Under the pieces are notes generated by a model that had not been told where the DNA came from, did not search any database, and saw only the letters and a list, made by a program, of their open reading frames with translations. From Candidatus Omnitrophota bacterium (lineage in GTDB: Bacteria > Omnitrophota > Gorgyraeia > Gygaellales > Profunditerraquicolaceae), in the NCBI GenBank assembly GCA_028716965.1, contig JAQUOV010000006.1, forward strand, positions 23,282-87,281: DNA of 64,000 nt, written 5' to 3'. The position numbers were made by a program, and so were the translations under genes. Of the stretch, positions 5,044 to 22,057 are shown one piece after another; position 1 is the stretch's first letter; each line of letters begins with the position of its first letter.

Positions 5044-6006
5044 TTAACGCCTGTAAAATCGCATGGTTTTACGGGTTTTTTCAACCGAAATCCCTTTAGG
5101 CAGGTCAACAATAGAGCCGGTTGGCCGGTTATGTAATAAGTCTTCCAGTTCTTTAATATGCTGAAAACCTATCCTGCGGGTATCTCCCTGGATACAGGCA
5201 ATGCTTTGTCTGATCGCCAGCCTTGATATTGCGGGATGCAGCCTTTTGATTGCGCCTATTTTAAGCCGCAGTCTGTTTCCTTTCAACCAGTTCTTTGCAA
5301 CCTGGTCCAGGTACTCATAATCATAAGATACACTTTCGGCCAGGTTAGCTAAAAGCTCAACGATATTATAGTTATACCTCTTTTTAAGCAAAGGCATGAG
5401 ATTATGCCGTATCTTATTACGGAAAAATACCTCTTCCTTGTTAGTAGGGTCAATGCGCGGCCGGATCTTTCTACGCTTCAAGAAATCTTCAATTCTCCTA
5501 CGGCTTGTTTCTAAAAGCGGCCGGATAAAGATAACGCCATCAATTTTGCGTTTCACGGATATTCCGGATAGCCCTGATAATCCGGTCCCTCTCAAAATGC
5601 GCATGAGTATAGTTTCTGCCTGGTCATCAAGGTTATGCCCCAAAGCGACTTTATCCGCTTTAATTCTCTTGGCAGTACGAACGAAGAAATCTAACCTTGC
5701 CTGCCTGCATAGTTCTTCAAGAGAACCTTTTTTCTCCTTCCTTATGGAATCCAGTCTTATAGTAGTTATGGGTACCCCAAGCCTTTTGGCCCAGCTTCCC
5801 ACAAAAAGCGCATCGCGCTGAGAACCTTCGCGTAAACCATGGTCTACATGCGCAATATGTAAACTTAACCCCAGTTTAGATTTGAGATTAAATAGCTGCA
5901 ATAACAGAGACAGGGAATCCGGCCCGCCTGAAACAGCTACCAGGATTTTATCCTGTTTTTGAATTAACGCGTATTTCTTGATCGTATCCAGAAAATTGTT
6001 CGGCAT
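5044..6006 (-). CDS. tilS: tRNA(Ile)-lysidine synthetase
   Basis: 320 aa. PP-loop SGGPDS motif near the N-terminus (VAVSGGPDSLSLL). It lies upstream of ftsH as in many bacteria. Confidence 0.85.
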   Translation of the reverse strand: MPNNFLDTIKKYALIQKQDKILVAVSGGPDSLSLLLQLFNLKSKLGLSLHIAHVDHGLREGSQRDALFVGSWAKRLGVPITTIRLDSIRKEKKGSLEELCRQARLDFFVRTAKRIKADKVALGHNLDDQAETILMRILRGTGLSGLSGISVKRKIDGVIFIRPLLETSRRRIEDFLKRRKIRPRIDPTNKEEVFFRNKIRHNLMPLLKKRYNYNIVELLANLAESVSYDYEYLDQVAKNWLKGNRLRLKIGAIKRLHPAISRLAIRQSIACIQGDTRRIGFQHIKELEDLLHNRPTGSIVDLPKGISVEKTRKTMRFYRR

Positions 6007-6095
6007 GTAGTTATTCTAACATAAAGATTATAAAACTTATATACAGATTTTATCAGCTCCCCGTAAACTCAAAAACATCCTCATTGCATAAAATA

Positions 6096-6124
6096 TTGAC
6101 TTTTTTGGCAATAAATAGTAAATT
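6096..6124 (+). promoter_or_regulatory. candidate sigma70-type promoter (TTGACT-17 nt-TAAATT) driving the flippase gene, possibly giving a leaderless or very short-leader mRNA
   Basis: TTGACT at 6096-6101, a 17-nt spacer, TAAATT at 6119-6124, and ATG at 6131. It lies in the divergent tilS/flippase intergenic region. Confidence 0.3.
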
Positions 6125-6130
6125 AATGCC

Positions 6131-7405: not shown

Positions 7406-7444
7406 GCTCATAAAACCAATGAGCAATTAAAGACAGCCCTGAAA

Positions 7445-7601
7445 TTCGCAGGACTGCCTCTCTTGTCTTTGGTGGCGGAGAGTGGCCCTGCTCAGCTATC
7501 GCTTCGCAGGACTGCCTCTCTTGTCTTTGGTGGCGGAGAGTGGCCCTGCTCAGCTATCGCTTCGCAGGACTGCCTCTCTTGTCTTTGGTGGCGGAGAGTG
7601 G
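7445..7601. repeat. tandem array (about 2.7 copies) of a 58-bp repeat; each unit ends with the 16 nt 3'-terminal segment (T-stem 3' strand, acceptor 3' strand, CCA) of the adjacent tRNA
   Basis: The unit ttcgcaggactgcctctcttgtctttggtggcggagagtggccctgctcagctatcgc occurs at 7445-7502 and 7503-7560 and partially at 7561-7601, where it merges into the tRNA. The copies are directly abutting with no spacers. Confidence 0.9.
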
Positions 7602-7662
7602 ATTTAAACCACCGACCAAGCGGGTATGAGCCGCGTGCTCTATCAGGCTGAGCTACTCCGCC
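7586..7662 (-). tRNA. tRNA with CAT anticodon (Met elongator or Ile2/lysidine type), CCA encoded, with an atypical D-loop and T-loop
   Basis: The reverse complement folds as a cloverleaf: GGCGGAG TA GCTC AGCCTGATA GAGC A CGCGG CTCATAC CCGCT TGGTC GGTGG TTTAAAT CCACT CTCCGCC A CCA. It has a G1:C72 pair, so it is not initiator-like. The D-loop lacks the conserved GG and the T-loop has T instead of C56. Confidence 0.6.
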
Positions 7663-7769
7663 AAAATCAATTTAAATTATCAAGTGTTATTACGCGGCTT
7701 GTTTTAAGTATCAAGCCGCCTTATCTATCCTATCGGTGTAGTCCTCCCGAAACTGCAAGCTTGCGAGGA

Positions 7770-7804
7770 GAGCCGCGTGCTCTATCAGGCTGAGCTACTC
7801 CGCC
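7770..7804 (-). pseudogene. isolated copy of the 5' half (positions 1-34, up to the anticodon first base) of the tRNA at 7586-7662
   Basis: 35 nt at 7770-7804 are identical to 7628-7662, and the upstream A-run is also copied. The sequence diverges exactly inside the anticodon loop. Hairpins (gcggcttg..caagccgc; gcaagcttgc palindrome) lie between the two copies. Confidence 0.8.
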
Positions 7805-7823
7805 AAAAACAACTTTTCAAATA

Positions 7824-8612
7824 TTATTTCTTCCTGTATGCCTCTAAATATGAATCACAATAAATATTCTTGTCCAAGATAAGCTCTGCCGTAATCAATG
7901 TATCAATAAGCTCTCTATCCTTGGGGTCAAGTATAGCAGAATCCAGGCCATATGCAACTGCCATTGTCAAAAAAGTGCGGTTAATCAGGCTGCGCAGATG
8001 AGTGCCCTGGGAAACATTACTCAATCCTAAAGTAGTCTTGGGACCGGGTTCGGAAATAATCTTAAATTCGGCGATAGACTCCAGGATATCCCTCATTTGC
8101 GCCTGGGCTACATTAACCGGTAAAACTATGGGATCCAGATACAGGTCTTCGACGGGAAAACATGCTTTTAGGCAATTGTCCACGATAGCTGCCGCCAGTT
8201 CAAGGCGCTGGTCCTTGTTTTGCGGGATGCCCTTTGAACTAATAGTAATACCGATCAGCTTAGATTCGTATTTTTTTGCCAAAGGGATGAGCGCTTCAAG
8301 CTTTTCCGCATCGGCTGTTGTAGAATTTATAATTGTTTTATTCCTGGAAGCCTTCAAGCCCTCTTCAATAACGGCAGGCTTGCTTGAATCCAAACAGAGC
8401 GGCTTATCGGTTACCTCCTGGATTGCCTCAACTAACCAAGGCATATCAACTTGCGGCTGCCCGGAAGCCGGTCCGCAGTTGATATCTAAAGCGTCTGCCC
8501 CGCAGGCAATTTGAGTTAAAGCGCAATTTTGTATTTCTTTTTTATTGCGCTCTTTGATTGCCGAGCCTATGTTAGCGTACATACCGTTAATCAACTCACC
8601 GATAATGAACAT
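7824..8612 (-). CDS. acsE: methyltetrahydrofolate:corrinoid/iron-sulfur protein Co-methyltransferase (pterin-binding, DHPS-like fold)
   Basis: 262 aa. The N-terminal MFIIGELINGM resembles the AcsE/MeTr family start, and the size matches. It is adjacent to the CFeSP subunits. Confidence 0.8.
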   Translation of the reverse strand: MFIIGELINGMYANIGSAIKERNKKEIQNCALTQIACGADALDINCGPASGQPQVDMPWLVEAIQEVTDKPLCLDSSKPAVIEEGLKASRNKTIINSTTADAEKLEALIPLAKKYESKLIGITISSKGIPQNKDQRLELAAAIVDNCLKACFPVEDLYLDPIVLPVNVAQAQMRDILESIAEFKIISEPGPKTTLGLSNVSQGTHLRSLINRTFLTMAVAYGLDSAILDPKDRELIDTLITAELILDKNIYCDSYLEAYRKK

Positions 8613-8636
8613 AAGGTATTCCTTTTAAAAAGTACG

Positions 8637-9572
8637 TTATTTCTTAAAAAGCGTATTGATATAAGCAAGCACCTTCTCAGCTGCTTTCGGATGCCGCATA
8701 ACCAAAAGGTCGGCGCCGGACTGTATCAGGCTGGTGGCGGTAATTACTTCCCAGATAACCCCGTGATCAGGACCGGATTTGGCTTCTTTTGTCCTCCATG
8801 CCTCCTGCCCCGTGAAACAAATAAACGGAGAAGCCAGTGTCTTATCGCCTGATAAAGCGGCAAGCCTGGCCCTCTCCATAATGGAATAGGCATATTCAAG
8901 CCCGTAACCCAATGCCCCGATGGTGGGGTTAATTACGATCCGCTCAAGGCTTAAGCCCATATCCGAAATCAATATATTTAATTGCTTGGCGATATTGATG
9001 TCTATCGGGCTTTCGGCGATAATATTGTGGCCGTCAGCTAATACACTGGCAACCAGGGTCTTATAATTATCCTGGATTGCGCAGCCGATCAAACAGCGTT
9101 CTGCTTTAGCCGCTTCAGAACAGGCAGGTAAAATCAGGTTATCTTTGGCATCATCGCCGCAGCCTATGATTATTAACGGTACATTTACTTTACTTAAAAG
9201 GGTAGAAATAAATTTTGCCGCTTCCTGGGGGCCTTTATTTCCGTAATCAGGGTGGCTGCCCTGCATTCTTACACAAAGTAGTTTTGCTTTAAATTCCCTT
9301 ACGCATTTATCAGCCCAGGCAAAGGGATCATGCAAAACATCTCCGTATGCGCAGACAAGCCCTTCATCCCAATCCTGCGGAGGAGTATCCCAAACTTCAA
9401 AAGCAACCGCGGGCAAATTAGGTATATTGCCCTCCTTGAATAACAAGGGCAGGCTGCTTTCTCCGCCTATCTTTACCGTATTGCCGCGGGAACCCCCCTC
9501 TTCTTTATTTGCTCCGATACTCAGGGTGTAAATTGCACCCGCCCATTTTTCAAGCACTAATTGTGTTTCCAT
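8637..9572 (-). CDS. acsD: corrinoid iron-sulfur protein small subunit (acetyl-CoA decarbonylase/synthase delta subunit)
   Basis: 311 aa, the size expected for the TIM-barrel CFeSP small subunit. It lies between acsE and cooC, as in acs operons. The call rests mainly on context and size. Confidence 0.65.
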   Translation of the reverse strand: METQLVLEKWAGAIYTLSIGANKEEGGSRGNTVKIGGESSLPLLFKEGNIPNLPAVAFEVWDTPPQDWDEGLVCAYGDVLHDPFAWADKCVREFKAKLLCVRMQGSHPDYGNKGPQEAAKFISTLLSKVNVPLIIIGCGDDAKDNLILPACSEAAKAERCLIGCAIQDNYKTLVASVLADGHNIIAESPIDINIAKQLNILISDMGLSLERIVINPTIGALGYGLEYAYSIMERARLAALSGDKTLASPFICFTGQEAWRTKEAKSGPDHGVIWEVITATSLIQSGADLLVMRHPKAAEKVLAYINTLFKK

Positions 9573-10309
9573 ATTTTCTCCCCCAGTGAATTAAGCGCCG
9601 TCAAAATGGGCGCATTTTTATCCAGAGTAAAAATCGAGGCACCTTTTAAACTTAATTCCCCGATTGAAGGGTCTTCCGGTAAAAAACCAAGATACTCCAA
9701 TCCTGTTTCTTCGATTTTTCTCTTCTCTATATCCTCATTAAAACGGTTTACCAATAGAAAGCTTTTTTTTATTTTAAGTTTCAATTGCGTTGAGAGCTCC
9801 TTTATCCTGCGTGCTGATTTTAATCCGATACTTGAGGCATCCGATACCACTATAAGCAGATCGGCAAAACAGCTGGTGCGCCTGGACAAATGCTCTAATC
9901 CCGCCTCATTGTCAATGATTATATAATCATAATCTTTGCTCAATTTGGAGACAACCGACCTTAAAACGTTATTCACGTAACAATAACATCCCGGCCCTTC
10001 GGGTTTACCCATACTCAAGATATCAAACCCGTCTTCTTCCTGGATCGCTGACTGCACCTGGTATTCTATAAAACGTTCTTTCGGCATGCCGGTAGGCACC
10101 TTTTCCGGGTTTGCGGATATATCGTCTAAAATCGCCCCCACGTCGCATCCGGGCTTAAAACCTAGAATCTCACCCAGATTACTATTGGGATCGGCGTCAA
10201 TAGCCAAAACCGAACCAATCTTCTTTTCCCGGATCCTGCGGATAATCAAAGATGCGATCGTAGTCTTCCCCATGCCGCCTTTACCGGCCATCGCGATAAT
10301 CCTGCCCAT
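9557..10309 (-). CDS. cooC: CO dehydrogenase/acetyl-CoA synthase nickel-insertion ATPase (CooC/AcsF, MinD/ParA family)
   Basis: 250 aa with a deviant Walker A motif (AMAGKGGMGKTT). It sits in the acs cluster. Confidence 0.8.
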   Translation of the reverse strand: MGRIIAMAGKGGMGKTTIASLIIRRIREKKIGSVLAIDADPNSNLGEILGFKPGCDVGAILDDISANPEKVPTGMPKERFIEYQVQSAIQEEDGFDILSMGKPEGPGCYCYVNNVLRSVVSKLSKDYDYIIIDNEAGLEHLSRRTSCFADLLIVVSDASSIGLKSARRIKELSTQLKLKIKKSFLLVNRFNEDIEKRKIEETGLEYLGFLPEDPSIGELSLKGASIFTLDKNAPILTALNSLGEKIWKHN

Positions 10310-12235
10310 CTAAAATTTCACCGTAGGGAATTTTGTTAAATCCGTATGAGGGAAAAATAACGCCTGGCTGTATTCATCCATATACCCCGGGTCAACAGAT
10401 AATTCAAAATAGGTGATCCTAGAAGCAATATTATTGGCCATGGTCATGGCCTGGTTTGATAAAAGTATCTGGCTGGCCCCCGCAAGCGCGCTGTTGCCGA
10501 TAAATGAAAATTTAGCAAGCCCTAAATCAGGCAGTAAGCCGATCTTAACCGCCTTCTCAATATCCAGGTAGGTGCCAAATCCGCCTGCGATAAATATCCT
10601 GGATATCTGCGTAAAGCACAGGCCAAGGTGCTTAACTAAAATAGCGGTAGCGGAATATATCGCTGCCTTTGAGCGTTTTAGATTTTCAATATCCGCTTCA
10701 TTAATTACGATATCCGATGAAATATCGGTTTCTTCCTTAAAACAGACCACGAATTCTTTTCCGGTATCTGTTTGACGGATACGCCTGCCCGCGGCTTTGA
10801 TCTTGCCGCCTTTGTCAATTATGCCGGCCTCCAGCATTGAGCTGAGTAGATCAATGTATCCCGAACCGCAGATCCCCTTCGGTTTTTTATCACCGATACT
10901 TGAATATTTGACCTCAAAGCCGGTTTTATCAATACTTATTTTCTGAATAGCCCCGTTGCTGGCGCGCATACCGCTGGTTACGCCGCTGCCCTCAAAGGCC
11001 GGTCCGGCTGAAGCTGCGCAGGCAACCAGGAAATCCTTATTCCCTAAAACAATCTCCCCGTTTGTTCCGATATCAATTAATATGCAAAGTTCATCCTTTT
11101 GATATATGCCGCTTGAGAGCACCCCTGCGGTAGTATCCCCTCCCACGTAACTGGAGACTCCCGGCACGCAGGAAAGCAAACCCCGGGGGTTAATACTTAT
11201 CCCGGCCTCCGCCGCGCGCAAAACAGGCAGAAAATTTGCCGTAGGCACATAGGGGTCTTTGCGGATGTGCGCCGGGTCAACGCTTAAAAGCAGATGGATC
11301 ATTGTGGTGTTCCCCGAACAAACAACGCAGTTAACATCATTTAAATCAATATTATGCTCAAGGATCAATTCACGGATTATCTGGTTCATTGTATTGCAAA
11401 CAGCCTCATGCAGCCTTTCCAGACCGTCGCTTTGCCCGGCATAGACTATGCGCGTAATTACATCGTTTCCAAAAGTAGCCTGTTGGTTATAGGTTGCCTT
11501 GGTCCCAAGGATTTTTTTTGAATTCAGGTCTACCAACTGTCCGGAGATAGTGGTTGTGCCGACATCAAAACAAAAACCGAAGTTTTTATCTGTCGTGTCC
11601 CCGGGTTCAACCAGGACGATCTCTACGGTATCGTTGCGCTTGCCTAACGTAACAGTAACCTTCCATTCGGAATCACGCAATAGTTCACCCAGCTGCCGGA
11701 TATTGAATAAGCCGGTCTGGATTACGGGAAAATCCCCAAGCTGGCGCAAAGCGCGGTATATCCGCTCCAGGTCTCCCGCGTTATCATCAAGCGTAGGCGT
11801 AGGCAACTCCAGGTATAATTTTGTGGCAAAGGGGGAATGTTTAAAAAGGCCTTCTTTGAATTTTGCATTCACCGGCTGGATATCCTCAGCTTTTGAATAA
11901 AGGCTGCCTAAACGCTCCCCTACCTGCGAAGGAGTAAGGCTATCAAAGCTAAGCCGGGAACTTTCAGGGATCTCTACCTCTAAATCGCTATGGATATTCG
12001 TAAGACAACTAAGGTATATATTGTGTTTTCTCTCTTCTGCCGTAATTATCCCGTTAGGCTGGGTACTTACCTGCCCCTTCTTTAGAATAACCTTGCATCT
12101 TCCACAGACACCGTCACCTCCGCAGACAGAGTTGACATATACCCCCGCGGAGATGGCCGCAGAAAGGATAGTCCTGTCTTTTTCCGCAAGGACAGATTTA
12201 TTATCCGGCATGAATGTGACTTTGAATTTTTGCAT
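10310..12235 (-). CDS. reductive activator of corrinoid protein (RACo): N-terminal [2Fe-2S] ferredoxin plus an ASKHA ATPase domain
   Basis: 641 aa. N-terminal plant-type ferredoxin cysteine pattern (CGGDGVCGRCKV) is followed by a large ASKHA-like domain. It sits between cooC and acsC. Confidence 0.8.
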   Translation of the reverse strand: MQKFKVTFMPDNKSVLAEKDRTILSAAISAGVYVNSVCGGDGVCGRCKVILKKGQVSTQPNGIITAEERKHNIYLSCLTNIHSDLEVEIPESSRLSFDSLTPSQVGERLGSLYSKAEDIQPVNAKFKEGLFKHSPFATKLYLELPTPTLDDNAGDLERIYRALRQLGDFPVIQTGLFNIRQLGELLRDSEWKVTVTLGKRNDTVEIVLVEPGDTTDKNFGFCFDVGTTTISGQLVDLNSKKILGTKATYNQQATFGNDVITRIVYAGQSDGLERLHEAVCNTMNQIIRELILEHNIDLNDVNCVVCSGNTTMIHLLLSVDPAHIRKDPYVPTANFLPVLRAAEAGISINPRGLLSCVPGVSSYVGGDTTAGVLSSGIYQKDELCILIDIGTNGEIVLGNKDFLVACAASAGPAFEGSGVTSGMRASNGAIQKISIDKTGFEVKYSSIGDKKPKGICGSGYIDLLSSMLEAGIIDKGGKIKAAGRRIRQTDTGKEFVVCFKEETDISSDIVINEADIENLKRSKAAIYSATAILVKHLGLCFTQISRIFIAGGFGTYLDIEKAVKIGLLPDLGLAKFSFIGNSALAGASQILLSNQAMTMANNIASRITYFELSVDPGYMDEYSQALFFPHTDLTKFPTVKF

Positions 12236-12252
12236 AAGCTGGAAAGCTGTGG

Positions 12253-13584
12253 TTAGTTCAGGTTCTTTAAAAACGCGGGGATTCCCGCAGCTTCTTTGGG
12301 ACCTACGATCACTTTAAAACCCGATTGTTCCTCCAGGTCGCCGCTTAAAACGGCTACATAACCCGGGATAATTAAGTTCCTGTGCTTCACTACATCCTGA
12401 ACACCGAATTTATCCAGCGACTTGGTAATAGATTCGGCGTTGAACTTCTCGGCAGCCCAGGCAGTAAGCACGGACATACCTTCGGTATCTACGCTTAAAA
12501 TATAAGAAGGTATTTTGCTGGCTTCTACTTCTCCCAAGACGGTGAAATAACTCAATGAGAAATTAGTGGTTACCAGGACCGGGGATTTTTCGGACGCCCC
12601 TCCCACGGGATAAAGCTTAGGTTCAATCTGCAGTGGTTTTTGCGGATCAGTATAAATATTCTGCCTTAAGGTTAAAATTGCCAGCACCTCCCATGCTTCA
12701 GTACCCCGGATAAGGACAGCACCGGCATATTTAGATATATAAGCGGTTGCCTCCATCGCTTCTTCATAAAAATCAGCTTTATCTACGATGGCCAGGCTTG
12801 GATAGCCTAAAGCGCGGTTTGATTTCTTAAGCGCCTGGCGGCGCAACTGGGTCAAATCCCATATTTTATCGGTAACGGATTTTGCGCCGGTATCTAAAAT
12901 CAGCTCGTTTACCCCGAGAGCATTAAGCTCTTTACTAAGGAACGCAAGGCCGTCAATATCCTGCGCGACTACCACTAAGGGGAGCTGAAACTCCTTAGCA
13001 ATAGGCGCAATCTGCGCGAAATTATCTTTAGTCGCGCAGTAAAGCAACGGTTTACGCCCCCTGGAGGCGCCTGCCGCCTGCTTAAGGGCAGACAGGTCGC
13101 TGCTCATTAACATAATCGGCAGGGCAGTGTTTTTTAAGACCAGCTCGGTTGCTTCCAGAAATCTCTTTGCATCCGTATTTTTATTTATTGCAATAAGGTT
13201 TACCTCCAGCACCTGGCCCACGCGTTCAAATTTCAGCTGGTTGATTCTTTCAAGTCTCTTCTTTATCTCAATGTCCGATAGGTTATCCTCAATAATAAAA
13301 CCCAGGGCTGTCGGATTACGGAATTTCTCCTCATGCCTGAACATTACCGTTTCATTGCCGATCTCAAGCTTTGCATCACCGCTACCCAAAGTAATGAGCT
13401 TAATCGGAGGCAATGCCTGCTCCTCTAATGCGGCCCGGGCTTGCGCCGAAATAAAAGGGCATTTCTCGATGGCCAGTGTCTTTTTGGCCAGCTGCATCGC
13501 AAAAGCAAGACAGGTAGCTAAACCGCACTGGCGGCAATTTGTTTTAGGGAGCAGCTTATAAATATCCAAACCAGAAAGTGCCAT
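12253..13584 (-). CDS. acsC: corrinoid iron-sulfur protein large subunit (acetyl-CoA decarbonylase/synthase gamma subunit)
   Basis: The N-terminus carries the [4Fe-4S] motif LLPKTNCRQCGLATCLAFAMQ...KCP, followed by TIM-barrel and B12-binding regions. The track ORF begins 12 codons upstream (13620). I place the start at the Met of MALSGLDIYKLL. Confidence 0.85.
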   Translation of the reverse strand: MALSGLDIYKLLPKTNCRQCGLATCLAFAMQLAKKTLAIEKCPFISAQARAALEEQALPPIKLITLGSGDAKLEIGNETVMFRHEEKFRNPTALGFIIEDNLSDIEIKKRLERINQLKFERVGQVLEVNLIAINKNTDAKRFLEATELVLKNTALPIMLMSSDLSALKQAAGASRGRKPLLYCATKDNFAQIAPIAKEFQLPLVVVAQDIDGLAFLSKELNALGVNELILDTGAKSVTDKIWDLTQLRRQALKKSNRALGYPSLAIVDKADFYEEAMEATAYISKYAGAVLIRGTEAWEVLAILTLRQNIYTDPQKPLQIEPKLYPVGGASEKSPVLVTTNFSLSYFTVLGEVEASKIPSYILSVDTEGMSVLTAWAAEKFNAESITKSLDKFGVQDVVKHRNLIIPGYVAVLSGDLEEQSGFKVIVGPKEAAGIPAFLKNLN

Positions 13585-13627
13585 GATTATCTCCTTGCCC
13601 ATAAGGGCACACCCGCGCAATACCTTA

Positions 13628-14305
13628 TTAGCGCGCAGTGCTGTTGATTAAACTGGCGAAGTAACCGGCGCCAAACCCGTTATCAATATTGACTACTGTC
13701 ACACCCGGGGAACAACCGTTTAGCATGGATAAAAGAGCGGCTAACCCGGAAAAGCTGGACCCGTACCCGCAGCTGGTCGGGACCGCAATAACCGGCGATT
13801 TGGCTAAACCGCTGACTAAACTAGCCAACGCACCTTCCATCCCGGCTACTACTATTATTACCTTTGCCTTTTTTAATTTATCTATATTGCTCATCAACCG
13901 GTGGACCCCTGCGACACCGACATCATATAATTTATCAACACAATTCCCCATTACTTGCAGGGTCTGCGCCGCTTCCTCGGCTATCGGGATATCGCTGGTG
14001 CCGGCAGAAATAACTAAAACCCGGCCCTTATAGGGTTTCTTGGGCTTAGCTGAAAAATACCCGATCTTCGCCAGGGGGTTGTATTTTAAAACAGGAATTG
14101 ACTTTTTCAGAACAGAAAATGTAGCCTTGTCTAATTTAGTTAATAACAGGTCTTCTTTTAACTTAATTATCTTTTTAGCTATTTTCTCCAGATGCCCTAT
14201 ATTTTTCCCCGGGCAGTAAATTACTTCTGCAAACCCCTTGCGTTTCTTTCTGTCTGTGTCCAGCTTAGCAAATCCCAGGTCACAGAAACCTTCTCTTAAC
14301 GACAT
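13628..14305 (-). CDS. larB: nickel-pincer cofactor biosynthesis protein LarB (PurE-like pyridinium-3,5-biscarboxylic acid mononucleotide synthase)
   Basis: 225 aa. LGFAKLDTDRKKRKGFAEVIYCPGK matches the LarB N-terminal signature. The C-terminal PurE-like part has the AGTSD and VVNIDNGFGA motifs. Confidence 0.8.
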   Translation of the reverse strand: MSLREGFCDLGFAKLDTDRKKRKGFAEVIYCPGKNIGHLEKIAKKIIKLKEDLLLTKLDKATFSVLKKSIPVLKYNPLAKIGYFSAKPKKPYKGRVLVISAGTSDIPIAEEAAQTLQVMGNCVDKLYDVGVAGVHRLMSNIDKLKKAKVIIVVAGMEGALASLVSGLAKSPVIAVPTSCGYGSSFSGLAALLSMLNGCSPGVTVVNIDNGFGAGYFASLINSTAR

Positions 14306-14309
14306 TTAT

Positions 14310-14618
14310 CTATAAACCCCGGTAAACAAGAAAACCAAACAGGGCTATTAAAAACATAGCAAGGATATAGAAGTCATTGAAATAAAAAAAATCGTGGATC
14401 ATATCCTGCAAAGTTCTTTCTTTCCCCTGGTATTCGGAATGCATAAGAGGATGCTCTTTTTTGTATTGCTCTACCTGGTCTTTCTTAAATCTTAGGTATA
14501 ACCCGCCTATTTTATAAGCCGGGATTACCCCCTTTTCCGCCAGGTCCAAAACATCCTTTTCGAATACGCCCAGGATAAGCGAAACATCCCGGACAGTCAG
14601 CAGTTTTTCTTCAGCCAT
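14310..14618 (-). CDS. excisionase-type helix-turn-helix (HTH_17-like) protein with a C-terminal transmembrane anchor
   Basis: 102 aa. An N-terminal HTH (LTVRDVSLILGVFEKDVLDLAEKGVIPAYKIGGLYLRFKKDQV) is followed by a hydrophobic C-terminal helix (FYILAMFLIALFGFLVY). Confidence 0.55.
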   Translation of the reverse strand: MAEEKLLTVRDVSLILGVFEKDVLDLAEKGVIPAYKIGGLYLRFKKDQVEQYKKEHPLMHSEYQGKERTLQDMIHDFFYFNDFYILAMFLIALFGFLVYRGL

Positions 14619-14624
14619 TTTAGT

Positions 14625-15134
14625 TTATTTTCCTATTTTGCCTGCCGCAACCCAGCTGTCAATCGCCTTACGCTCAAATTTCCAGTCATTCCCTTCTTTA
14701 TTCCCCGGCATCTTACCCGAATTCGCCCACTCCATTACTGAATTTAATTCCACCTCCAGGTATTTTGCCAGCTGTTCGGAATTAAGAAAATCATGCAGCA
14801 TTGAACACTGTCCTTCCAAAACAGCGCCTTCAGCGACATTCAACCTGGCTGGATAAATATGCCCTTCAACAATAGCCTGTGGCAGAAGAGTCAATCTCTC
14901 CTTTGCGGTAATCCTTCCTTTGACCCGGCCACCGATAATTATATTATCTCCGATAATATCCGCGTTGATTACGGCTGTAGAGCCTATGGTAAGGTTACCC
15001 CTGATATCAAGGTTGCCTTCAAATTTACCGTTAATACGCAGATTAACCGGATCTTTAAAAGATAAACTCCCCTGCATTGCGGCATCAACATCCAAAGTCT
15101 TTTCGTCCAGCTTCTTTTTAAATGCCATGCGCAC
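14625..15134 (-). CDS. bactofilin-domain protein fused to a C-terminal excisionase-type HTH (HTH_17-like) DNA-binding domain
   Basis: 169 aa. Residues 15-115 show the beta-helical bactofilin repeat pattern (INGKFEGNLDIRGNLTIGSTAVINADIIGDNIIIGGRVKGRI). The C-terminus (LNSEQLAKYLEVELNSVMEWANSGKMPG..KFERKAIDSWV) is an HTH paralogous to the neighbouring gene. Confidence 0.55.
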   Translation of the reverse strand: MRMAFKKKLDEKTLDVDAAMQGSLSFKDPVNLRINGKFEGNLDIRGNLTIGSTAVINADIIGDNIIIGGRVKGRITAKERLTLLPQAIVEGHIYPARLNVAEGAVLEGQCSMLHDFLNSEQLAKYLEVELNSVMEWANSGKMPGNKEGNDWKFERKAIDSWVAAGKIGK

Positions 15135-15585
15135 CCTCCTTTTTCTTAAGCTTAGGGTTATTTAAAATATCTCTCTCTATGTAGCGCAGTAGATATAGAA
15201 CGATTAAGACCAGAGCCGTGGCGTAGACCGCCATTCTATTAAACCCGCACCCTACCGCCAGGCCGATCCCTGAAACCACCCATAAGCTGGCGGCAGTAGT
15301 CAGCCCTCTTACCCCTTCGGGTTCGCGGATAATCGTACCGGCGCCCAAGAATCCAATACCGGTAATTACCCCCGCGGCAATGCGCGCCGGGTCTAATGAA
15401 GCAGTTTCTTTATATATATCAAAAACATACAGAGATGTCAACATTATAAGACAAGAACCCAAAGCCACCAGGATATGCGTGCGCAGGCCGGCATCCCTGC
15501 GATGGACCTGACGCTCAAGACCGATTGCCCCGCTTAAAAACAAAGTCAATAATAAACGCACGATCATCTGAAGATCAGTAGGCAT
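15118..15585 (-). CDS. mgtC: MgtC/SapB family membrane protein
   Basis: 155 aa with 4-5 TM helices. The N-terminal LLLTLFLSGAIGLERQ motif is characteristic of the MgtC N-terminal domain. Confidence 0.7.
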   Translation of the reverse strand: MPTDLQMIVRLLLTLFLSGAIGLERQVHRRDAGLRTHILVALGSCLIMLTSLYVFDIYKETASLDPARIAAGVITGIGFLGAGTIIREPEGVRGLTTAASLWVVSGIGLAVGCGFNRMAVYATALVLIVLYLLRYIERDILNNPKLKKKEGAHGI

Positions 15586-15594
15586 TAATCCTCC

Positions 15595-16584
15595 TTAATT
15601 ATTAAGCTCTGTATTCAAATACAAGCTGTCTCTTGCGCCCTGTTTATAAAGAAAATAGGCAAGCCCGCTAACCATGGCGGCGTTGTCCATGCATAAACTG
15701 ATAGTGGGGAAAAAACAGTCAATCCCTTCGCTGCGGGCCGAAGAAAGTAATTTTTGGCGTAAACAGCTATTAGCAGCTACCCCTCCTCCGATCAGGAGCC
15801 GCTTGGCATTCTTGCGCCTGCACGCCAGCAAAGATTTTTTTATCAGTACATTTATTACGCTCTCTTGAAACGAAGCAGCCAGGCTGGCATTCCCAGATTT
15901 GATCTTCTGCCGGTTATTTTTTAAATAGTACCAAACAGCTGTTTTTATACCGCTAAAACTGAAATCCAATTCTTCCTGTGTCCCTGAACAAGCGAATTTA
16001 ATCTTATTTTTATTGCCGTCCCGGGCTAACTTTTCAATCAACGGGCCGCCGGGATAACCCAGCCCCATAATTTTAGCCACCTTATCAAAAGCCTCACCGC
16101 AGGCATCATCCCGGGTCTGGCCCAAAACCCGTATATCAGAAAAATCCTTAACATAGAAAAGGCTTGTATGCCCTCCAGAGACCACTAAAGCTACAGAAGG
16201 AAGTTTTATGTTCCGATGACAAAGAATGTTCGCATAAATATGGCTATAGACATGGTTGACTCCCAGTATCGGCTTGCCTAAACTCAAAGCTAATGCCTTG
16301 GCAAAAGAAACTCCCACCAGAAGCGAACCCGGCAGGCCCGGCCCCTTAGTAACCGCAATCAGATCTATATCCTCCGTTTTGATCCCGGCTTCCTTAATTG
16401 CAGCGGAGTATACCCTGCCTATACTTTCCAGCTGCAAACGCGAGGCAATTTCCGGAATTACCCCGCCGTATTTACTATGTATCTTCAGGCTCGAGACAAC
16501 CAGATTAGCCATCACCGACTTGCCGTCCCTGACTATGCCGATACCTGTCTCATCACATGACGTCTCTATTCCCAGAACGATCAT
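15595..16584 (-). CDS. tsaD: tRNA N6-adenosine threonylcarbamoyltransferase
   Basis: 329 aa. It starts MIVLGIETSCDETGIGIV and contains HxxxH (NHVYSH) metal motifs of the Kae1/TsaD family. Confidence 0.9.
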   Translation of the reverse strand: MIVLGIETSCDETGIGIVRDGKSVMANLVVSSLKIHSKYGGVIPEIASRLQLESIGRVYSAAIKEAGIKTEDIDLIAVTKGPGLPGSLLVGVSFAKALALSLGKPILGVNHVYSHIYANILCHRNIKLPSVALVVSGGHTSLFYVKDFSDIRVLGQTRDDACGEAFDKVAKIMGLGYPGGPLIEKLARDGNKNKIKFACSGTQEELDFSFSGIKTAVWYYLKNNRQKIKSGNASLAASFQESVINVLIKKSLLACRRKNAKRLLIGGGVAANSCLRQKLLSSARSEGIDCFFPTISLCMDNAAMVSGLAYFLYKQGARDSLYLNTELNN

Positions 16585-17372
16585 TTAGCTATCTCCGAGA
16601 CAAAAACAAATTTATAACCGTCTTTTACCATCTGAGGTATGACCTCTTTTAGGACCGCAAGTGTATTCCTGCGGTCATGGCCGATTCCTATAGCTTGTCC
16701 TTTTTTCTTAGCCAGATCCCTTAATTTGAATATCTGTGCTTTTATATATGCCGGATCATCACGGTTATCCAGAAATATGTCTCTTTTAGCGAAACGTACC
16801 TTCATTTTCGCGGCTAATAAAGAACAGACGGATTTAGCAGTGACAAAACTATCCAAAAAATATAATTTACGCCTTTTTACTTCAGAGATAATTAACGCGC
16901 TAACCCTGCTGTTTTCGGTAATACGCGAACCCATATGGTTAGAGATGCCTTTTGCAAATAAGACCGAGGCTAAATCCTGGTCAAGGATGCTGCGGATGCG
17001 CAAGGCATCCATGGTTGTTGTGATAGTATTCTTTTCCAGCCGGTATTTTTCTTTTGGCTCCATCGGTAAATGCAGTATGATTTCAAACCCGAAACTATTC
17101 AATTTTCTCGCCACTAGGGCCGAATTATTCAGGTTGGGCAGGACCGCGCAAGTCAAAGGCTGTTTTATCTCTCCGGCATCCTTAAGGTTACTTAAATTAT
17201 AGCCCCAATCGTCTATTACGATAGCTATTTTTCCTTTTATAAGCGCAGCCTTGGGCAGGATCCTCTTGTGTACTGCAGTCAGGATAACAGCGACAAAGAC
17301 AAGAAACGAAAGAATCAAAACGGAGATAATTACCAGCTTTCTATTCATCTGTTTTCTTGCTTTAAACGCCAT
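16581..17372 (-). CDS. divergent polysaccharide deacetylase family protein (YibQ-like)
   Basis: 263 aa with an N-terminal TM helix. The IAIVIDDWGYN and HLPMEP motifs are typical of the YibQ/divergent polysaccharide deacetylase family. Confidence 0.65.
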   Translation of the reverse strand: MAFKARKQMNRKLVIISVLILSFLVFVAVILTAVHKRILPKAALIKGKIAIVIDDWGYNLSNLKDAGEIKQPLTCAVLPNLNNSALVARKLNSFGFEIILHLPMEPKEKYRLEKNTITTTMDALRIRSILDQDLASVLFAKGISNHMGSRITENSRVSALIISEVKRRKLYFLDSFVTAKSVCSLLAAKMKVRFAKRDIFLDNRDDPAYIKAQIFKLRDLAKKKGQAIGIGHDRRNTLAVLKEVIPQMVKDGYKFVFVSEIAK

Positions 17373-17381
17373 ATTCCAGGT

Positions 17382-18674
17382 CTAAACAGGAGGTTGATTC
17401 TCCTCGGATTTTTTATATAACTCTATGGCTCTCAGGGTATTTACAGCCCGCATTATCTGCGGGTCATTTTTATAATCAAAGGTACCTTCAGGAAGCTTGC
17501 CTTTTTTTTCTACGGATTCAACCTCTTTGAATATTTCATCGGTTTTGCTGATATTTACCTGAGCCGCCTTATTGTTACTGCCTTCATTTGAATCCACCTG
17601 GATATCGGGAGTGATCCCCTTGCCGTGAATTATTTTTCCGGAAGGGGTAAAATAATGGCTGGTGGTTAAGCGTAACGCCGAGCCGTCCCCTAAAGGGATA
17701 ACCGTCTGCACTGAGCCCTTGCCGAAAGATTTATTTCCTATAATTATGGCGCGTTTATAATCTTGCAAAACGCCGGCAACGATCTCACTGCCTGAAGCAG
17801 AGCCCTCATTAATCAGTATTACCAACGGCAAATCCAGAATGGCATTCTTATCTCCGGAAAGGAATTCAAAATCCTGATCCCGTTGCCTGCCTTTGGTATA
17901 GGCAATCATTTTATCCGGCGGAATAAACCTGCCGGCAACTTTTACCGCCACATCCAGCAAGCCGCCGGGGTTATTGCGTAAATCTATGATCAGGGCATTT
18001 AGCTTTTGTTTAGAGAGGGTGCTTAAGGCATTGTTCAGTTCCTTTAAAGTGTTCTCCCGGAATTCAGCCAGGCGTATATAGCCGATGCCATCTTCCAATA
18101 TGCGCGCCTGCTTGATATCCTTGATTTTTATGATGTCCCGGGTGATCTTAAAATCCAGGAGTTTTTTTTCGGAATCCCTTAATATAGTCAGGTTAACTGC
18201 CTCCCCGGGTTTGCCGCGCATCTTCTTAACGGCATCCATCAGCGTCATCTCCCGCGTCAACTCATCATTAATCTTTACGATGTGGTCATTTGCTTTTATT
18301 CCGGCTTTCCAGGCCGGGGTATCTTCAATAGGCGTGATTACCGTCAACACCCCGTCTTTTATGGTAATCTCGATACCCAGCCCTCCGAACTTGCCTTGTG
18401 TATCTACTTTCAGTTCGTTATAAGTCTCCGGATCCATGAATTGGCTATGAGGGTCAAGCGAAGCAAGCATGCCTTTCAATGCTCCATAGATTAAATCCTT
18501 CGGTTTAGTATCTTCAACATATTCCTGATTAATAATCGCCATGGTATCCGAGAACAACCCTACCTGCCGGTATAGATCATCATGGTTTTTCTTTTTATTA
18601 GCCGAGTATACCCCTGTTACGCCAACAAGCAAAAGCAGGGTTAATAAAAGCCCAATCAGTATATTTTTACGCAT
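17382..18674 (-). CDS. ctpA: carboxyl-terminal processing protease (S41 family, PDZ domain)
   Basis: 430 aa with an N-terminal signal/TM segment, a PDZ region ([40 protein letters not shown]) and an S41 catalytic region ([11 protein letters not shown]...K). Confidence 0.85.
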   Translation of the reverse strand: [430 protein letters not shown]

Positions 18675-20100
18675 CAGTCAGCCTCCGCTTTATTAATTCT
18701 CCGACGATTTTGGGGTTAGCCTTACCGGCGCTCTTTTTCATTACCTGGCCTACTAAAAACATAAGCGCGTTTGTTTTTCCCGCCCTAAAGCTTGTAACGG
18801 ATTTCTCGTTTTCCCGGATCACCCCGGAGATAACCTGCTCCAGCTCCGCGGTATCGGATATCTGCAGCATGTTATTTTCCCGGATTATAAGCTCTGCCGG
18901 TTTTTGAGAGTCGATCATCTGTGTCAAAACGAGCTTTGCGGAAAGGTGCGAAATAGACTGGTTTTCTACAAAACCGATTAAGCTGATCAAATCCTCCATA
19001 TTAACATTCAACTCATGGAGCTCGACCTTGCGGCTATTGGCCTCGGATAACATAGGGCCGATCAACCAATTGGCCATATTCTTTTTATCTTTCCCCGGAT
19101 ATTTCCGGATGCACTCTTCCGCAAATTGGGCGTTTTTTTTAGAACTCACCAGGATCTTGGCGTCGTATTCGGATAAACCGTAATCACGCATAAAACGCCG
19201 CATTTTATCATGGGGCAATTCAGGCAATTGAGATTTAATCCGGGAGACCATGGTTTGTTCAATGATAAAAACTGTCAGATCGGGGTCGGGAAAATACCTG
19301 TAATCCTTGGCCCCTTCTTTATTACGCATAGAGACGGTTTCCCCATTTTCCGCATCCCAAAGGCGGGTTTCCTGAACCATGGCCTGGCCGGCCTCAAGCA
19401 AGGCAGCCTGGCGGTCTACCTCAAAAACCAAAGCATCCTTTACCCCTTTAAAGGAATTCATATTCTTCAGCTCTGCCTTAACCCCTAACTCTTTAGAGCC
19501 TTCGGGGCGTAAAGAAATATTAGCGTCGCAGCGTAAAGACCCCTTTTCCATATCGCAATCAGAAACATCCAAATATTCAATAATATTTTTTAAGCTGGTT
19601 AAATAATCAAATGCCTCCTGCGGGCTGTTTAAATCCGGCTCACTGACAATCTCAAGCAGGGGGACCCCTGCGCGGTTAAAATCCACCATACTTGCGTTTG
19701 ATTCATGGATAAGCTTGCCCGCGTCCTCCTCAAGATGCACACGGGTGATCCCGATGCGTTTAGTTTTATTATCGCTGAATATATCAAGATAGCCGTGGCG
19801 CGATAACGGCAGATCAAACTGTGAGATCTGGTAATTCTTCGGTAAATCCGGATAAAAATAATTCTTACGGTCAAATTTAGTATGTTCCTGTATCTGGCAG
19901 GAAAAAGCCAAAGCTACTTTAATTGCGGAATTCAGTGCCTCTTTATTGTAGACCGGCAAGGTGCCGGGAAAACCCAGGCATACCGGGCAAACACCGGAAT
20001 TAGGTGTTTTTCCAAAATCAATAGCGCAGCCGCAGAATGCCTTGGTTTTAGTTTTTAACTGCAGGTGAACCTCCAAACCGATAACTGTCTGGTATCTCAT
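18667..20100 (-). CDS. gatB: Asp-tRNA(Asn)/Glu-tRNA(Gln) amidotransferase subunit B
   Basis: 477 aa. It starts [17 protein letters not shown], the canonical GatB N-terminus. A gatCAB operon is present. Confidence 0.9.
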
Positions 20101-21515
20101 AGGCGTGGTTTAACTTTATGCCATTGCGTACTCTGCTCAAAAGCATGGGCCAGCCTGAAAAGCATCCCTTCATTAAAAGGCTTGGCCATAATCTGCAGTC
20201 CTATCGGAAGGCCGCTTTTGGAAAACCCGCACGGTATGGATATCGCAGGTATCCCCGCCAAATTTACCGATATGGTATATATATCCGAAAGGTACATCTG
20301 TAAAGGGTCAGCGGTTTTTTCGCCGATTTTAAAAGCCGGGGTCGGTGAAGTAGGGGTGATAATACAATCAAAATCCTTAAAGACCGCGTCAAAATCATTC
20401 TTTATAAGAGTGCGCACTTTCAAGGCACGTAAATAATACGCGTCATAATAACCGTGGGATAAAGCAAAGGTGCCTAAGATTATCCTGCGTTTGGCTTCCT
20501 CACCGAACCCCTCCGCACGGGTCTTCTTGTACATCTGAATAAGGCTGTCCGATTTGGCGCGATAACCGTATTGCACCCCGTCAAACCTGGCCAGGTTTGA
20601 ACTGGCTTCGGCAGTAGCCACAATGTAGTAAACCGGAACAGCATATTGCGTATGCGGCAAGCTTACCTGTTTTGAAACAGCCCCTAAAGATTCAAGCTTC
20701 TTTATTGCCTCTTCAATAACAAGTTTGACCTCCGGGTCAAGGCCTTCGATAAAATATTCTTTGGGGATGCCGATTTTTACCCCTTTGATATCTTTGCCCA
20801 GGCTATCAGTGTAATCCGGTAGATCCTGGTTTACCGAAGTCGAATCATTAGGGTCATAACCCGAGATAATCCGGGCCAATATTGCCGCATCTTCTACATC
20901 CTTGGTAATCGGGCCGATCTGGTCAAGGCTTGAGGCAAAAGCTATTAATCCAAAACGTGAAACACGGCCGTAAGTAGGCTTTAATCCTACCACGCCGCAA
21001 AAAGATGCAGGCTGGCGTATCGAACCACCCGTATCCGAACCTAACGCCCAAATCGCTTCATCGCTTGCCACAGCGGCAGCTGAGCCTCCGGAGGAACCCC
21101 CGGGCACACATTCCAAATTCCAGGGGTTATGCGTTGGGCCAAAGGATGAATTTTCCGTAGATGAACCAAAAGCAAATTCATCCATATTCGCTTTTAGCGG
21201 GAAAATAGCATTGCCGGACTTTTTTAGCTTACTGATAACCGTCGCGTCGTATGGCGGGCGAAAACCACAAAGGATCTTTGAACAGCATTCCGTATTTAAT
21301 CCTTCAGTGCAAATATTATCTTTAACCGTTACCGGTAAAAGGCCCGCTAAGCCATTTGCCTGGGTATTTCCCGGCTTAAATCTTGCATAAGCTTTGACTT
21401 TAGGCTCAACGGCTTCTATGCGCGCATAAAGCGAATCCAGTATCTGCCCGGAAGCAACCTGCTTGCTTCTAAGCTTATCCAGCAATTCATGGGCGGTCAG
21501 TTGATTTAATTCCAT
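20097..21515 (-). CDS. gatA: Glu-tRNA(Gln) amidotransferase subunit A (amidase signature family)
   Basis: 472 aa with the amidase signature [12 protein letters not shown] and the Ser-cisSer-Lys triad context. Confidence 0.9.
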
Positions 21516-21517
21516 AA

Positions 21518-21805
21518 TTATTCGATCACCTTTGGGACGCTGAAGAAGTTCCCGTTTTTGCTTGGGGCATTTTCCAGGGCTTGATCAACAGTTAAACAAG
21601 TACGCACTTCATCCTCACGCAATACATTACTGATAGGCAAAATATGGCTGGCAGGTTCAACCATGGCTATATTTAGAACGCTTAGCTTATCAATAAAACC
21701 TAAAATATCATGCAATTGCCGTGATAGTTTCTCTAATTCACCGGGCCCTAATTCGATGCGCGCTAAGTGCGCAACCTGTTCTACTGTCCCTTTATCTATT
21801 GCCAT
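21518..21805 (-). CDS. gatC: Asp/Glu-tRNA amidotransferase subunit C
   Basis: 95 aa, immediately upstream of gatA. Typical GatC size and conserved LARIEL region. Confidence 0.8.
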
Positions 21806-21996
21806 CTTCTCCTCCGCTTGGCAAATATTTTATCATCTTTATCTCAAAAGTCAATGAACACTTGGTTTACGAACCAAACAGCATATAAGTTTTTAACTAA
21901 CCCAGCCCTTGTAAGCTTAAGCGGGCAAAGATAATCCTGAAGGCTGCAAAGCGATTAACTGCGGGGATAATACTATGTGGCATCCCCCATTTTAAG

Positions 21997-22024
21997 TTGA
22001 CAAAGGCAATAAAACCTGTAAAAT
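21997..22024 (+). promoter_or_regulatory. candidate sigma70 promoter (TTGACA-16 nt-TAAAAT) about 33 nt upstream of the 1061-aa gene
   Basis: Consensus -35 TTGACA at 21997-22002 and -10 TAAAAT at 22019-22024. It lies in the divergent gatC/large-ORF intergenic region. Confidence 0.45.
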
Positions 22025-22057
22025 ACTACTAATTAACTGCAGCAAATATATAAAAAT

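Follow-up and report, generated by a model that had tools for sequence, protein, structure and literature searches.

Bactofilins are widespread, few of their clients are known, and their links to other components of the cell are an open question. Here, a two-gene locus is described from a stretch of 64,000 nucleotides of a Candidatus Omnitrophota bacterium (assembly GCA_028716965.1, contig JAQUOV010000006.1, positions 23,282 to 87,281), in the following called the window. The first gene (14625-15128, minus strand) encodes a bactofilin of 167 amino acids (aa) which is fused to a wHTH (winged helix-turn-helix) domain. The second gene (14310-14618, minus strand) encodes a partner of 102 aa with a wHTH of the same type and a predicted C-terminal membrane anchor. 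This module is kept across a whole uncultured phylum, in about 400 species-level genomes. A link between bactofilins and HTH proteins as such is already known from BacR, whereas no paper was found on a scaffold covalently joined to a wHTH and paired with an HTH-bearing membrane partner.

The nearest described system is that of BacR (YhbD) and Cap0037 in the Bacillota. Both are DUF4004 proteins with an N-terminal MerR-like HTH, encoded beside the bactofilins BacE/BacF and Cap0036, respectively. BacE and BacF bind BacR, keep it membrane-localised and prevent it from binding DNA, while Cap0037, which is present in a 1:1 ratio with Cap0036, autoregulates and has a predicted C-terminal transmembrane (TM) segment (PMC13649987, PMC5050335). 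The order of a DUF4004 gene followed by a bactofilin gene could be confirmed on pSOL1, where Cap0037 matched the DUF4004 profile PF13171 with 4e-87. The locus studied here resembles this arrangement in that the direct neighbour of its bactofilin gene codes for a small protein with the HTH at the N-terminus. In contrast to the partner, BacR and Cap0037 are about 210 aa in length, lie upstream of the bactofilin gene, bind DNA and have a canonical recognition helix (...LYRW...). The partner is encoded downstream, which is the reverse of the order in yhbDEF and CA_P0037-36, is tail-anchored and carries an Asp at the position of the Arg in this helix, and the bactofilin beside it has a fused wHTH of its own. 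An assignment of the partner to DUF4004 was rejected, as neither protein matched PF13171 at E 0.1 or better and the comparison with Cap0037 by hhalign gave a probability of 0.9%.

A second point of comparison is BacA, a membrane-bound bactofilin polymer with an N-terminal membrane-targeting sequence (MTS) which recruits the bitopic PbpC via the cytoplasmic tail of the latter, and PbpC can replace the MTS (PMC12448750). The locus of the window likewise combines a bactofilin, the tail of which is a candidate MTS, and a single-pass membrane protein with a cytoplasmic part, which would be recruited in a similar way. A further pair of a bactofilin and its client in the Alphaproteobacteria is reportedly BacA-LmdC. 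The clients PbpC and LmdC are enzymes of the cell wall whose periplasmic domains are large, and they bind by means of short peptides, whereas the partner is nearly devoid of an extracytoplasmic part (0-4 residues) and presents a folded wHTH together with an aromatic motif.

Bactofilins and other scaffolds have also been connected to the chromosome. In M. xanthus, the BacNOP scaffold is tied to chromosome organisation via adaptors with HTH domains (PMC5703909). BacNOP-PadC-ParABS thus shares with the locus of the window the combination of a bactofilin and HTH-bearing proteins. The link to DNA is indirect in M. xanthus, running via the ParB-like CTPase PadC and ParA, and no ParA or ParB homologue is present in the fusion-partner module. 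RacA couples a MerR-like wHTH to DivIVA via a C-terminal coiled coil (PMC4914108). A MerR-like wHTH coupled to a membrane-associated polymeric scaffold is also predicted here, but by covalent fusion to the bactofilin instead of the non-covalent coiled-coil link of RacA to DivIVA.

Full-text searches of the literature for bactofilin together with Omnitrophota or with HTH_17 yielded nothing, and the fusion architecture is known to the databases by generic annotation only. The first-pass annotation of this locus, which was made from the sequence, had called the domain combination undescribed. This holds for the exact architecture, which was not found in the literature, but not for an HTH protein beside bactofilins, which had been described for BacR and Cap0037 (PMC13649987, PMC5050335).

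In the list of open reading frames (ORFs), the ORF for the fusion is 14625-15134 on the minus strand, with a GTG start and 169 aa. The homologues of the fusion are 167 aa in length and all begin with MAFKKK, so that the start was assigned to the ATG at 15128 (stop codon 14625-14627) and the length corrected from 169 to 167 aa. The overlap with the stop of the upstream mgtC gene is therefore 11 nt and not the 17 nt given before. The gap of 6 nt between the fusion and the partner gene was confirmed.

The N-terminal domain of the fusion is a true bactofilin and not a hexapeptide acetyltransferase repeat. The beta-helix domain (aa 12-108; 14805-15095, minus strand) matched the Pfam profile Bactofilin PF04519 with an E-value of 2e-23 and 82.9 bits (cutoff 27.9), covering profile positions 3-97 of 98. 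Using phmmer against the Protein Data Bank (PDB), the bactofilin of T. thermophilus (6RIA, 2e-5) and BacA of C. crescentus (2N3D, 2.8e-5) were detected, and the scores of hexapeptide-repeat proteins were much weaker. The AlphaFold2 (AF2) model, which is based on an alignment of 38 sequences and reached a mean predicted local distance difference test (pLDDT) value of 86, consists of a beta-helix (residues 11-108) followed by the wHTH, with a pLDDT above 90 over residues 30-110. In a Foldseek search, the N-terminal domain matched BacA 2N3D with a TMt of 0.84 and a root-mean-square deviation (rmsd) of 2.1, and TtBac 6RIB with a TMt of 0.77. From these sequence and fold matches the domain was assigned to the bactofilins. 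The first-pass annotation had named an acetyltransferase repeat or a missing HTH as findings that would contradict it; HMM, PDB and fold searches returned a bactofilin and an HTH instead.

The conserved Phe of the C-terminal polymerisation interface of BacA, F130, aligns with L104 of the fusion in the alignment to 2N3D, a position occupied by L or F within the family. In BacA the exchange F130R abolishes assembly. The N-terminal tail MAFKKKLD (aa 1-8; 15105-15128, minus strand) is a candidate MTS. It is kept as MAFKK[KN]xE across 83 orthologues and is disordered in the AF2 model (pLDDT <50). In the clade of the window, the MAFKKK sequence is similar to MFSKKKK, the global MTS consensus of bactofilins (PMC12448750), while the tails of diverged fusions are basic yet variable. 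The spacer between the beta-helix and the wHTH comprises about 8 residues in the window clade, and inter-domain linkers elsewhere range from 0 to about 20 aa.

In one protein of the same bactofilin subfamily (P0278, 253 aa; ..FSDPVNLRIQGSFEGKL..), a PilZ domain takes the C-terminal place of HTH_17. At its C-terminus, the bactofilin scaffold therefore seems to accommodate interchangeable adaptors. A protein of 1036 aa with PAS-PAS-GGDEF-HD (HD-GYP-like) architecture, encoded in the window at 42804-45914 (minus strand), indicates c-di-GMP signalling in this genome, which bears on the bactofilin-PilZ variant.

The C-terminal domain of the fusion is a MerR/excisionase-like wHTH of the HTH_17 type (aa 114-162; 14643-14789, minus strand) with an acidic surface at the place of the DNA recognition surface. 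It matched Pfam HTH_17 PF12728 with E-values of 1.3e-8 to 1.4e-8 and 35.3 bits (cutoff 27). The wHTH of the partner (aa 6-55; 14454-14603, minus strand) matched the same profile with 3.7e-9 and 37.1 bits, as well as the NCBIfam profile TIGR01764 'excise' with 35.3 bits (cutoff 28.8). Both domains are homologous to each other (hhalign probability 97.6%, E 3.7e-12), with an identity of only 20%. The same HTH type in both proteins, as proposed in the first-pass annotation, is thus well supported, and wHTH topology was found in the AF2 models of both. In the fusion, the domain is formed by the helices 117-124, 128-137 and 153-161 and a wing at 143-152.

Searched with Foldseek, the fused domain matched BldC, with an rmsd of about 1.5 A for 49 residues, as well as the excisionase RdfS, Xis of Pukovnik, RacA and the small subunit of a terminase. 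The best matches of its sequence profile in the PDB were BldC (6AMK, 6AMA; 1.2e-4), RacA (5I41, 1.2e-4) and mycobacteriophage Xis. BldC is the best match in both sequence and structure. The Foldseek search also returned wHTH folds from protein-protein complexes, namely CbpM with the J-domain of CbpA (3UCS) and Rpp (6HN7). The wHTHs of these two proteins presumably act via protein contacts and not via DNA, as judged from the entry titles. By similarity to the fused HTH, two further proteins were found, P0318 (231 aa) and P0325 (135 aa), which are made up of HTH_17 repeats in tandem, three and two, respectively, and have canonical basic wings (GRxWxF).

The DNA contacts of BldC are made by K26 and R30 to bases, by T27, T29, W31 and K33 to phosphates and by H46, R47 and R48 of the wing in the minor groove, and each of the exchanges R30A and H46E abolishes DNA binding (PMC5859096). 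RacA reads DNA only via K15 and R19 (K26 and R30 in BldC), and all RacA homologues share these two residues (PMC4914108). The corresponding positions, numbered by BldC, were counted in 108 fusions and 84 partners.

The base-reading R30 is replaced by E or D in 96 of 108 fusions and by D or E in 77 of 84 partners. At K26, fusions have N or S (80/108), while the Lys is retained in the partners (K in 75/84). For K33, the most frequent residues were N in the fusions (78/108) and E in the partners (72/84), for T27 S (78/108) and D or E (77/84), respectively. In the wing, H46 corresponds to D or E in 65 of the 108 fusions and to Y or F in 83 of the 84 partners, and R47 to W (97/108) and L (80/84). 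A basic residue is retained at R48 in both families (K or R in 93/108 fusions; R in 84/84 partners), and at R50 the fusions have E (84/108) while the partners are still basic (K in 76/84).

In the window, the fusion (NSVMEWANSG...GNDWKFE) has E133 at the position of R30, N136 at that of K33 and D148 at that of H46. The partner (EKDVLDLAEKG...GGLYLRFKK) has D22 at T27, D25 at R30 and E28 at K33, and keeps the basic wing residues R43, K45 and K46, of which R43 is invariant; K36 is conserved. Canonical HTH_17 repeats from the same search read ...TVYTWSQKGKLP..IGRRWKFR, and the two Arg before the wing Trp that are typical for HTH_17 (GRRW) are replaced by N-D in the fusion. BldC itself is a free, basic protein of 68 aa which needs R30, H46, R47 and R48, and these are E, D, W and K in the fusion. 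Compared to K15 and R19 of RacA, the fusion has N/S and E/D and the partner K and D/E. In addition, no coiled coil was found, and the wHTH forms the C-terminal end of the fusion in the AF2 model.

Although the fold is that of a DNA binder, these exchanges argue that the canonical DNA-reading surface is replaced in both the fusion and the partner. The isoelectric point (pI) of the fused domain is 4.1-6 in 33 of 38 members. Net charge and pI were set aside as a test for DNA binding, since the aligned stretch of the genuine DNA binder RacA itself has a charge of about -1 (hand count), and the position-specific contacts were used instead. In contrast to the DNA contacts, the residues of the hydrophobic head-to-tail protein interface of BldC, F21, V23 and W31 (PMC5859096), have the equivalents L124, V126 and W134 in the fusion, which are invariant in the window clade.

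By its sequence, the partner is anchored in the membrane at its C-terminus, as had been proposed in the first-pass annotation. The TM helix (aa 82-100; 14319-14375, minus strand) is followed by 2 residues only. The best C-terminal 19-mer has a Kyte-Doolittle hydropathy of 2.06, with a minimum of 1.84 over all 83 orthologues, in which 0-4 residues follow the hydrophobic segment. The AF2 model of the partner has a pLDDT of 68 overall and was excluded from the fold search; it comprises the wHTH, a disordered linker and the helices 70-80 and 82-100, the latter with a pLDDT of 81-90. The linker (aa 56-74; 14397-14453, minus strand) is variable in sequence, of low pLDDT and, among distant lineages, differs in length by some 20-45 aa.

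Within the partner, conservation is highest in the juxtamembrane aromatic motif HDFFYFNDFYI (aa 75-85; 14364-14396, minus strand), with a median identity of 91%, followed by the HTH (74%), the TM segment (44%) and the linker (16%, 76 orthologues). The motif can still be made out in diverged pairs, the fusions of which share only 36-50% identity with that of the window (DLFYFNDFYF, DFFYFYDFYI, DFWRYNGFYL). The resemblance of MLHDFLN in the fusion to IHDFFYFNDFY in the partner was judged to be coincidental, as this segment is the first strand of the wHTH in the fusion.

In a set of 5.8 billion proteins, 2270 matches to the fusion and 1245 homologues of the partner were found. The best 120 matches to the fusion all contain both domains at an identity of at least 82%. 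An exhaustive search of 50%-identity cluster representatives revealed about 20 clusters with the full-length fusion architecture at 25-55% identity, and both Pfam domains were detected in 22 out of 22 diverse family members tested. Where the source of the diverged members is named, it is Omnitrophota or 'PVC group'. With one genome per GTDB species, 400 genomes have a relative of the fusion, and the best 80 are Omnitrophota metagenome-assembled genomes (MAGs) except for a few differently labelled bins. The window matches an Omnitrophota MAG, and the database proteins P0001 and P0121, annotated as 'polymer-forming cytoskeletal protein' and 'helix-turn-helix domain-containing protein', are 100% identical to the fusion and the partner of the window, respectively. 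Several apparent bactofilin-only relatives with 50-58% identity (P0259, P0262, P0270, P0275, P0282) were rejected as a separate architecture, as they appear to be frameshifted or truncated fusions.

Throughout the close clade (83 of 83 loci), the partner gene lies directly downstream of the fusion gene, at a median distance of about 7 nt. These loci share the whole block gatB-ctpB-deacetylase-tsaD-mgtC-pair-larB-cdhE-RACo, so that the adjacency is not independent evidence there. The partner is also adjacent downstream in 7 out of 10 contexts of diverged lineages, whose fusions have 36-50% identity and most of which have different neighbours; four of the seven share no flanking gene with the window. 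The partners at these loci are HTH_17 proteins of 94-119 aa with a C-terminal TM segment. The pair is preceded by tsaD and followed by SNase and tilS genes in L084, and lies between HINT genes and greA, acpS in L086, between a response regulator-kinase and a chorismate-binding enzyme in L088 and between SPOR, TPR-PDZ genes and small ORFs in L091. Upstream of it are BatD, TPR and mgtC in L095, with a PDZ protein downstream, and tsaD and mgtC in both L096 and L097, with polA downstream in the former and larB, a cupin and T2SSE in the latter. A partner is absent beside two diverged fusion lineages, L090/L093 (25% identity) and L098. Given the adjacency across diverged contexts with different neighbours, the fusion and the partner are a conserved two-gene module and a functional pair, which bears out the treatment of both genes as a unit in the first-pass annotation.

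The pair was found to be under strong purifying selection. Within the gene block, no other protein is as conserved as the fusion in 61 of 68 close-clade loci; its median identity is 83%, compared to 78% for LarB, 69% for CtpB and 67% for TsaD. Its two domains are equally constrained (bactofilin core 84%, HTH 82.5%). Such high conservation in both domains fits a protein with many interfaces.

Our preferred reading, which is tentative, is that the pair constitutes a membrane-bound bactofilin scaffold and its dedicated tail-anchored client or anchor, joined via repurposed wHTH modules. The fusion would polymerise through its bactofilin beta-helix into filaments that would line the membrane on its cytoplasmic side, where arrays of the N-terminal MAFKKK tails would hold them. 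On every subunit, a C-terminal wHTH would be displayed that lacks the DNA-reading Arg and whose acidic, hydrophobic surface may serve as a protein adaptor. The partner would be co-translated and expose its cytoplasmic wHTH on a flexible linker, with the aromatic motif at the membrane surface. It could dock on the polymer by wHTH-wHTH contacts (head-to-tail, as in BldC and Xis-type proteins), by the aromatic motif, or by both, and would then serve the scaffold as a dedicated anchor or client, in the way that PbpC serves BacA. Such a system would not bind DNA sequence-specifically but would yield a stable landmark or skeleton attached to the membrane.

Within this reading, we infer polymerisation of the fusion, its membrane binding through the tail and its contact and interface with the partner. 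It is favoured because of the bactofilin identity with L or F retained at the BacA F130 position, the MTS-like tail and the replaced DNA contacts, and because the BldC-interface residues are invariant, the pair is conserved, the fusion is highly constrained and the BacA-PbpC and BacR systems offer precedents. If the wHTHs are indeed protein adaptors, the pair would clearly exemplify the recruitment of a DNA-binding fold into the assembly of a cytoskeleton, and the BacR-bactofilin link would extend beyond the Firmicutes.

Several points weigh against a scaffold with its client. The DNA-binding fold is the only non-structural module in either protein, and a scaffold with an anchor but without an effector would have no obvious output. 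Of the BldC contact positions, S130, W134, K144 and K150 are kept in the fusion and K21, K36 and R43 in the partner, which has K45 at the wing position R50, so that DNA may be bound via the wing or in a non-canonical way. The acidity of the domain does not settle the question, net charge not being decisive in RacA either. Furthermore, the wHTH follows so closely after the beta-helix, at about 8 residues, that it could interfere with the C-terminal polymerisation interface. Between candidate interface residues, no compensatory changes were found in the few diverged pairs. A charge-swapped salt bridge between E125 of the fusion and R10 of the partner, comparable to R22-E16' in BldC, is retained as a speculation only, since four diverged pairs revealed no compensatory pattern.

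The strongest alternative, which we regard as somewhat unlikely, is a DNA tether in the style of RacA-DivIVA. Here, wHTH arrays borne by the polymer and the membrane-anchored wHTH would bind the chromosome and, in these very small cells, fix the nucleoid or an origin-proximal region to the membrane, either by the avidity of many weak sites or by contacts that are non-canonical or made through the wing. Among solved structures, the closest relatives of the fused domain do bind DNA, and one of them is RacA, the chromosome anchor of B. subtilis, whose link to the membrane scaffold DivIVA would here be a covalent one. In both proteins the wHTH is the only candidate effector module. The wing of the partner is basic, given its invariant R43 and the conserved K36, K45 and K46, and W134 of the fusion, which corresponds to the phosphate contact W31 of BldC, is conserved. 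Oligomerisation has been argued to raise the DNA affinity of weak HTH domains (PMC4914108). Distant bactofilin-HTH fusions are clustered with a ParA/MinD-like ATPase and an actin-like protein, and one fusion without partner has a basic recognition helix (SMVRKWAREG).

These points are opposed by the contact residues: Glu or Asp stands in place of the base-reading Arg in about 90% of the members of either family, most fusions have an acidic residue at the H46 position, and the equivalent exchanges in BldC (R30A, H46E) abolish binding. The N-D in place of the GRRW Arg pair and the low pI of most fused domains point in the same direction. The first-pass annotation had spoken of a cytoskeletal polymer that binds DNA directly, which could not be upheld in this form, as the residues corresponding to the BldC and RacA contacts are replaced, mostly by acidic ones, in both HTH families. 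In a more specific version, for which the odds appear lower again, the fusion would be RacA and DivIVA in one polypeptide, and wHTHs spaced about 3 nm apart along the filament would grip DNA together with the partner by avidity and wing contact, giving a nucleotide-independent anchoring or positioning of the nucleoid in ultra-small Omnitrophota cells. If the wHTHs do bind DNA, the pair would represent a minimal chromosome-to-membrane tether.

In L090 (290-5567) and L093 (723-6471), Bactofilin-HTH_17 fusions with 25% identity (P0369, P0415, P0423), which lack the partner, lie at the end of a conserved cluster comprising an ORF of 145 aa, a Volactin-like actin (PF25216), an ORF of 200 aa, a ParA/MinD-like ATPase of 465 aa with an AMPK1_CBM domain and two ORFs of about 216 aa, which looks like a multi-cytoskeletal positioning cluster. 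In L098 (4001-5399), the fusion P0424 (46% identity) has the canonical-looking basic helix SMVRKWAREG and no partner of the HTH-TM type; the product of the gene downstream has 234 aa, with a TM segment at its N-terminus and a charged region that resembles a coiled coil.

Improbable is a switch like that of BacR, in which the partner and/or the fused wHTH would be a transcription factor sequestered on the membrane-bound bactofilin polymer, tuning the operon or an envelope-stress response. The Firmicutes proteins BacR and Cap0037 are precedents in several respects: they are encoded beside bactofilins, with a DUF4004 gene directly before a bactofilin gene on pSOL1, BacR is bound by BacE/F, kept at the membrane and blocked in DNA binding, and Cap0037 autoregulates and has a predicted C-terminal TM segment. 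Envelope genes are also frequent neighbours of the pair (ctpB, a divergent polysaccharide deacetylase, SPOR and PDZ proteins). The partner, however, would be permanently membrane-anchored, without a feature for cleavage or release, and is not a DUF4004 protein according to Pfam and hhalign. BacR and Cap0037 retain the canonical YRW recognition helix, where the Arg is D or E here. Moreover, the pair of the window is part of a tightly packed operon without an upstream intergenic region that could be regulated, and promoter-like sites occur at chance level.

That the two proteins are independent, with an adjacency due to the shared ancestry of a compact housekeeping operon and a neutral or vestigial fused HTH, is highly improbable: it would agree with the gatB-to-RACo synteny of the closest 83 loci and with the two diverged fusion lineages lacking a partner (L090/L093 and L098), but not with the adjacency in 7 of 10 diverged contexts, four of them without any flanking gene in common with the window, nor with a fused HTH conserved like the bactofilin core (82.5% vs 84%), nor with the restriction of such HTHs to the fusion and partner ORFs within the 64-kb window.

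The pair is located between an MgtC/SapB-family membrane protein consisting of the TM domain only (15118-15585, minus strand; PF02308, E 5.5e-41) and larB (13628-14305, minus strand; confirmed as LarB by NCBIfam). The position between mgtC and larB that was given in the first-pass annotation is correct as a location, but says little about function, as the pair lies in a housekeeping run and larB is replaced by other genes in related lineages. The gene mgtC recurs upstream in several lineages. It is directly upstream of the pair in L095 (3535-3972), L096 (3526-3975) and L097 (3333-3992), but not in L084, L086, L088 and L091. In L095 it is retained, though the genes further upstream differ (BatD, TPR). 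Its product is limited to the membrane domain in the window, L095 and L096 (145-155 aa), while that of L097 has 219 aa. On this evidence, which is weak, the MgtC/SapB protein may be a third component.

The genes were assigned using the ORF list and homologues, together with the Pfam matches for the fusion and synteny for the partner. The pair is part of a long co-directional housekeeping run, which extends from gatCAB to the acetyl-CoA synthase genes. For the region 12000-22500, the counts of promoter- and terminator-like sites were the same as in shuffled sequence and are uninformative on a separate transcription unit. Profiles of both HTHs revealed no third copy of either HTH in the 64-kb window. 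The remaining window contains ordinary chromosomal housekeeping genes: acpS, pdxJ, ftsH, tilS, genes for acetyl-CoA synthase and corrinoid proteins, gatCAB, lepA, genes of aromatic amino-acid biosynthesis, scpB, ruvAC, rpoD, dnaG and genes for sugar-nucleotide enzymes. Two long ORFs, 22058-25243 (plus strand, 1061 aa) and 55456-57681 (minus strand, 741 aa), had no Pfam match at E 1e-5 or better, and the former is the sole long plus-strand gene within a minus-strand region.

In two metagenome contigs, L001 and L003 (3551-4530 in both), tsaD is present as two ORFs (171 aa and 141 or 154 aa), which is probably due to an assembly frameshift, as the gene is intact in L002. Downstream of the pair in L084 (6173-10546) come genes for SNase, tilS, a glycosyltransferase gene, an uncharacterised ORF and ftsH, whereas tilS and ftsH are about 8 kb further away from the pair in the window (3074-14305). 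The intervening segment of the window consists of larB and an acetyl-CoA synthase/corrinoid block (cdhE, RACo, a CooC-like ATPase, cdhD and a pterin-binding methyltransferase), which, from the comparison with L084, was gained or lost as a unit.

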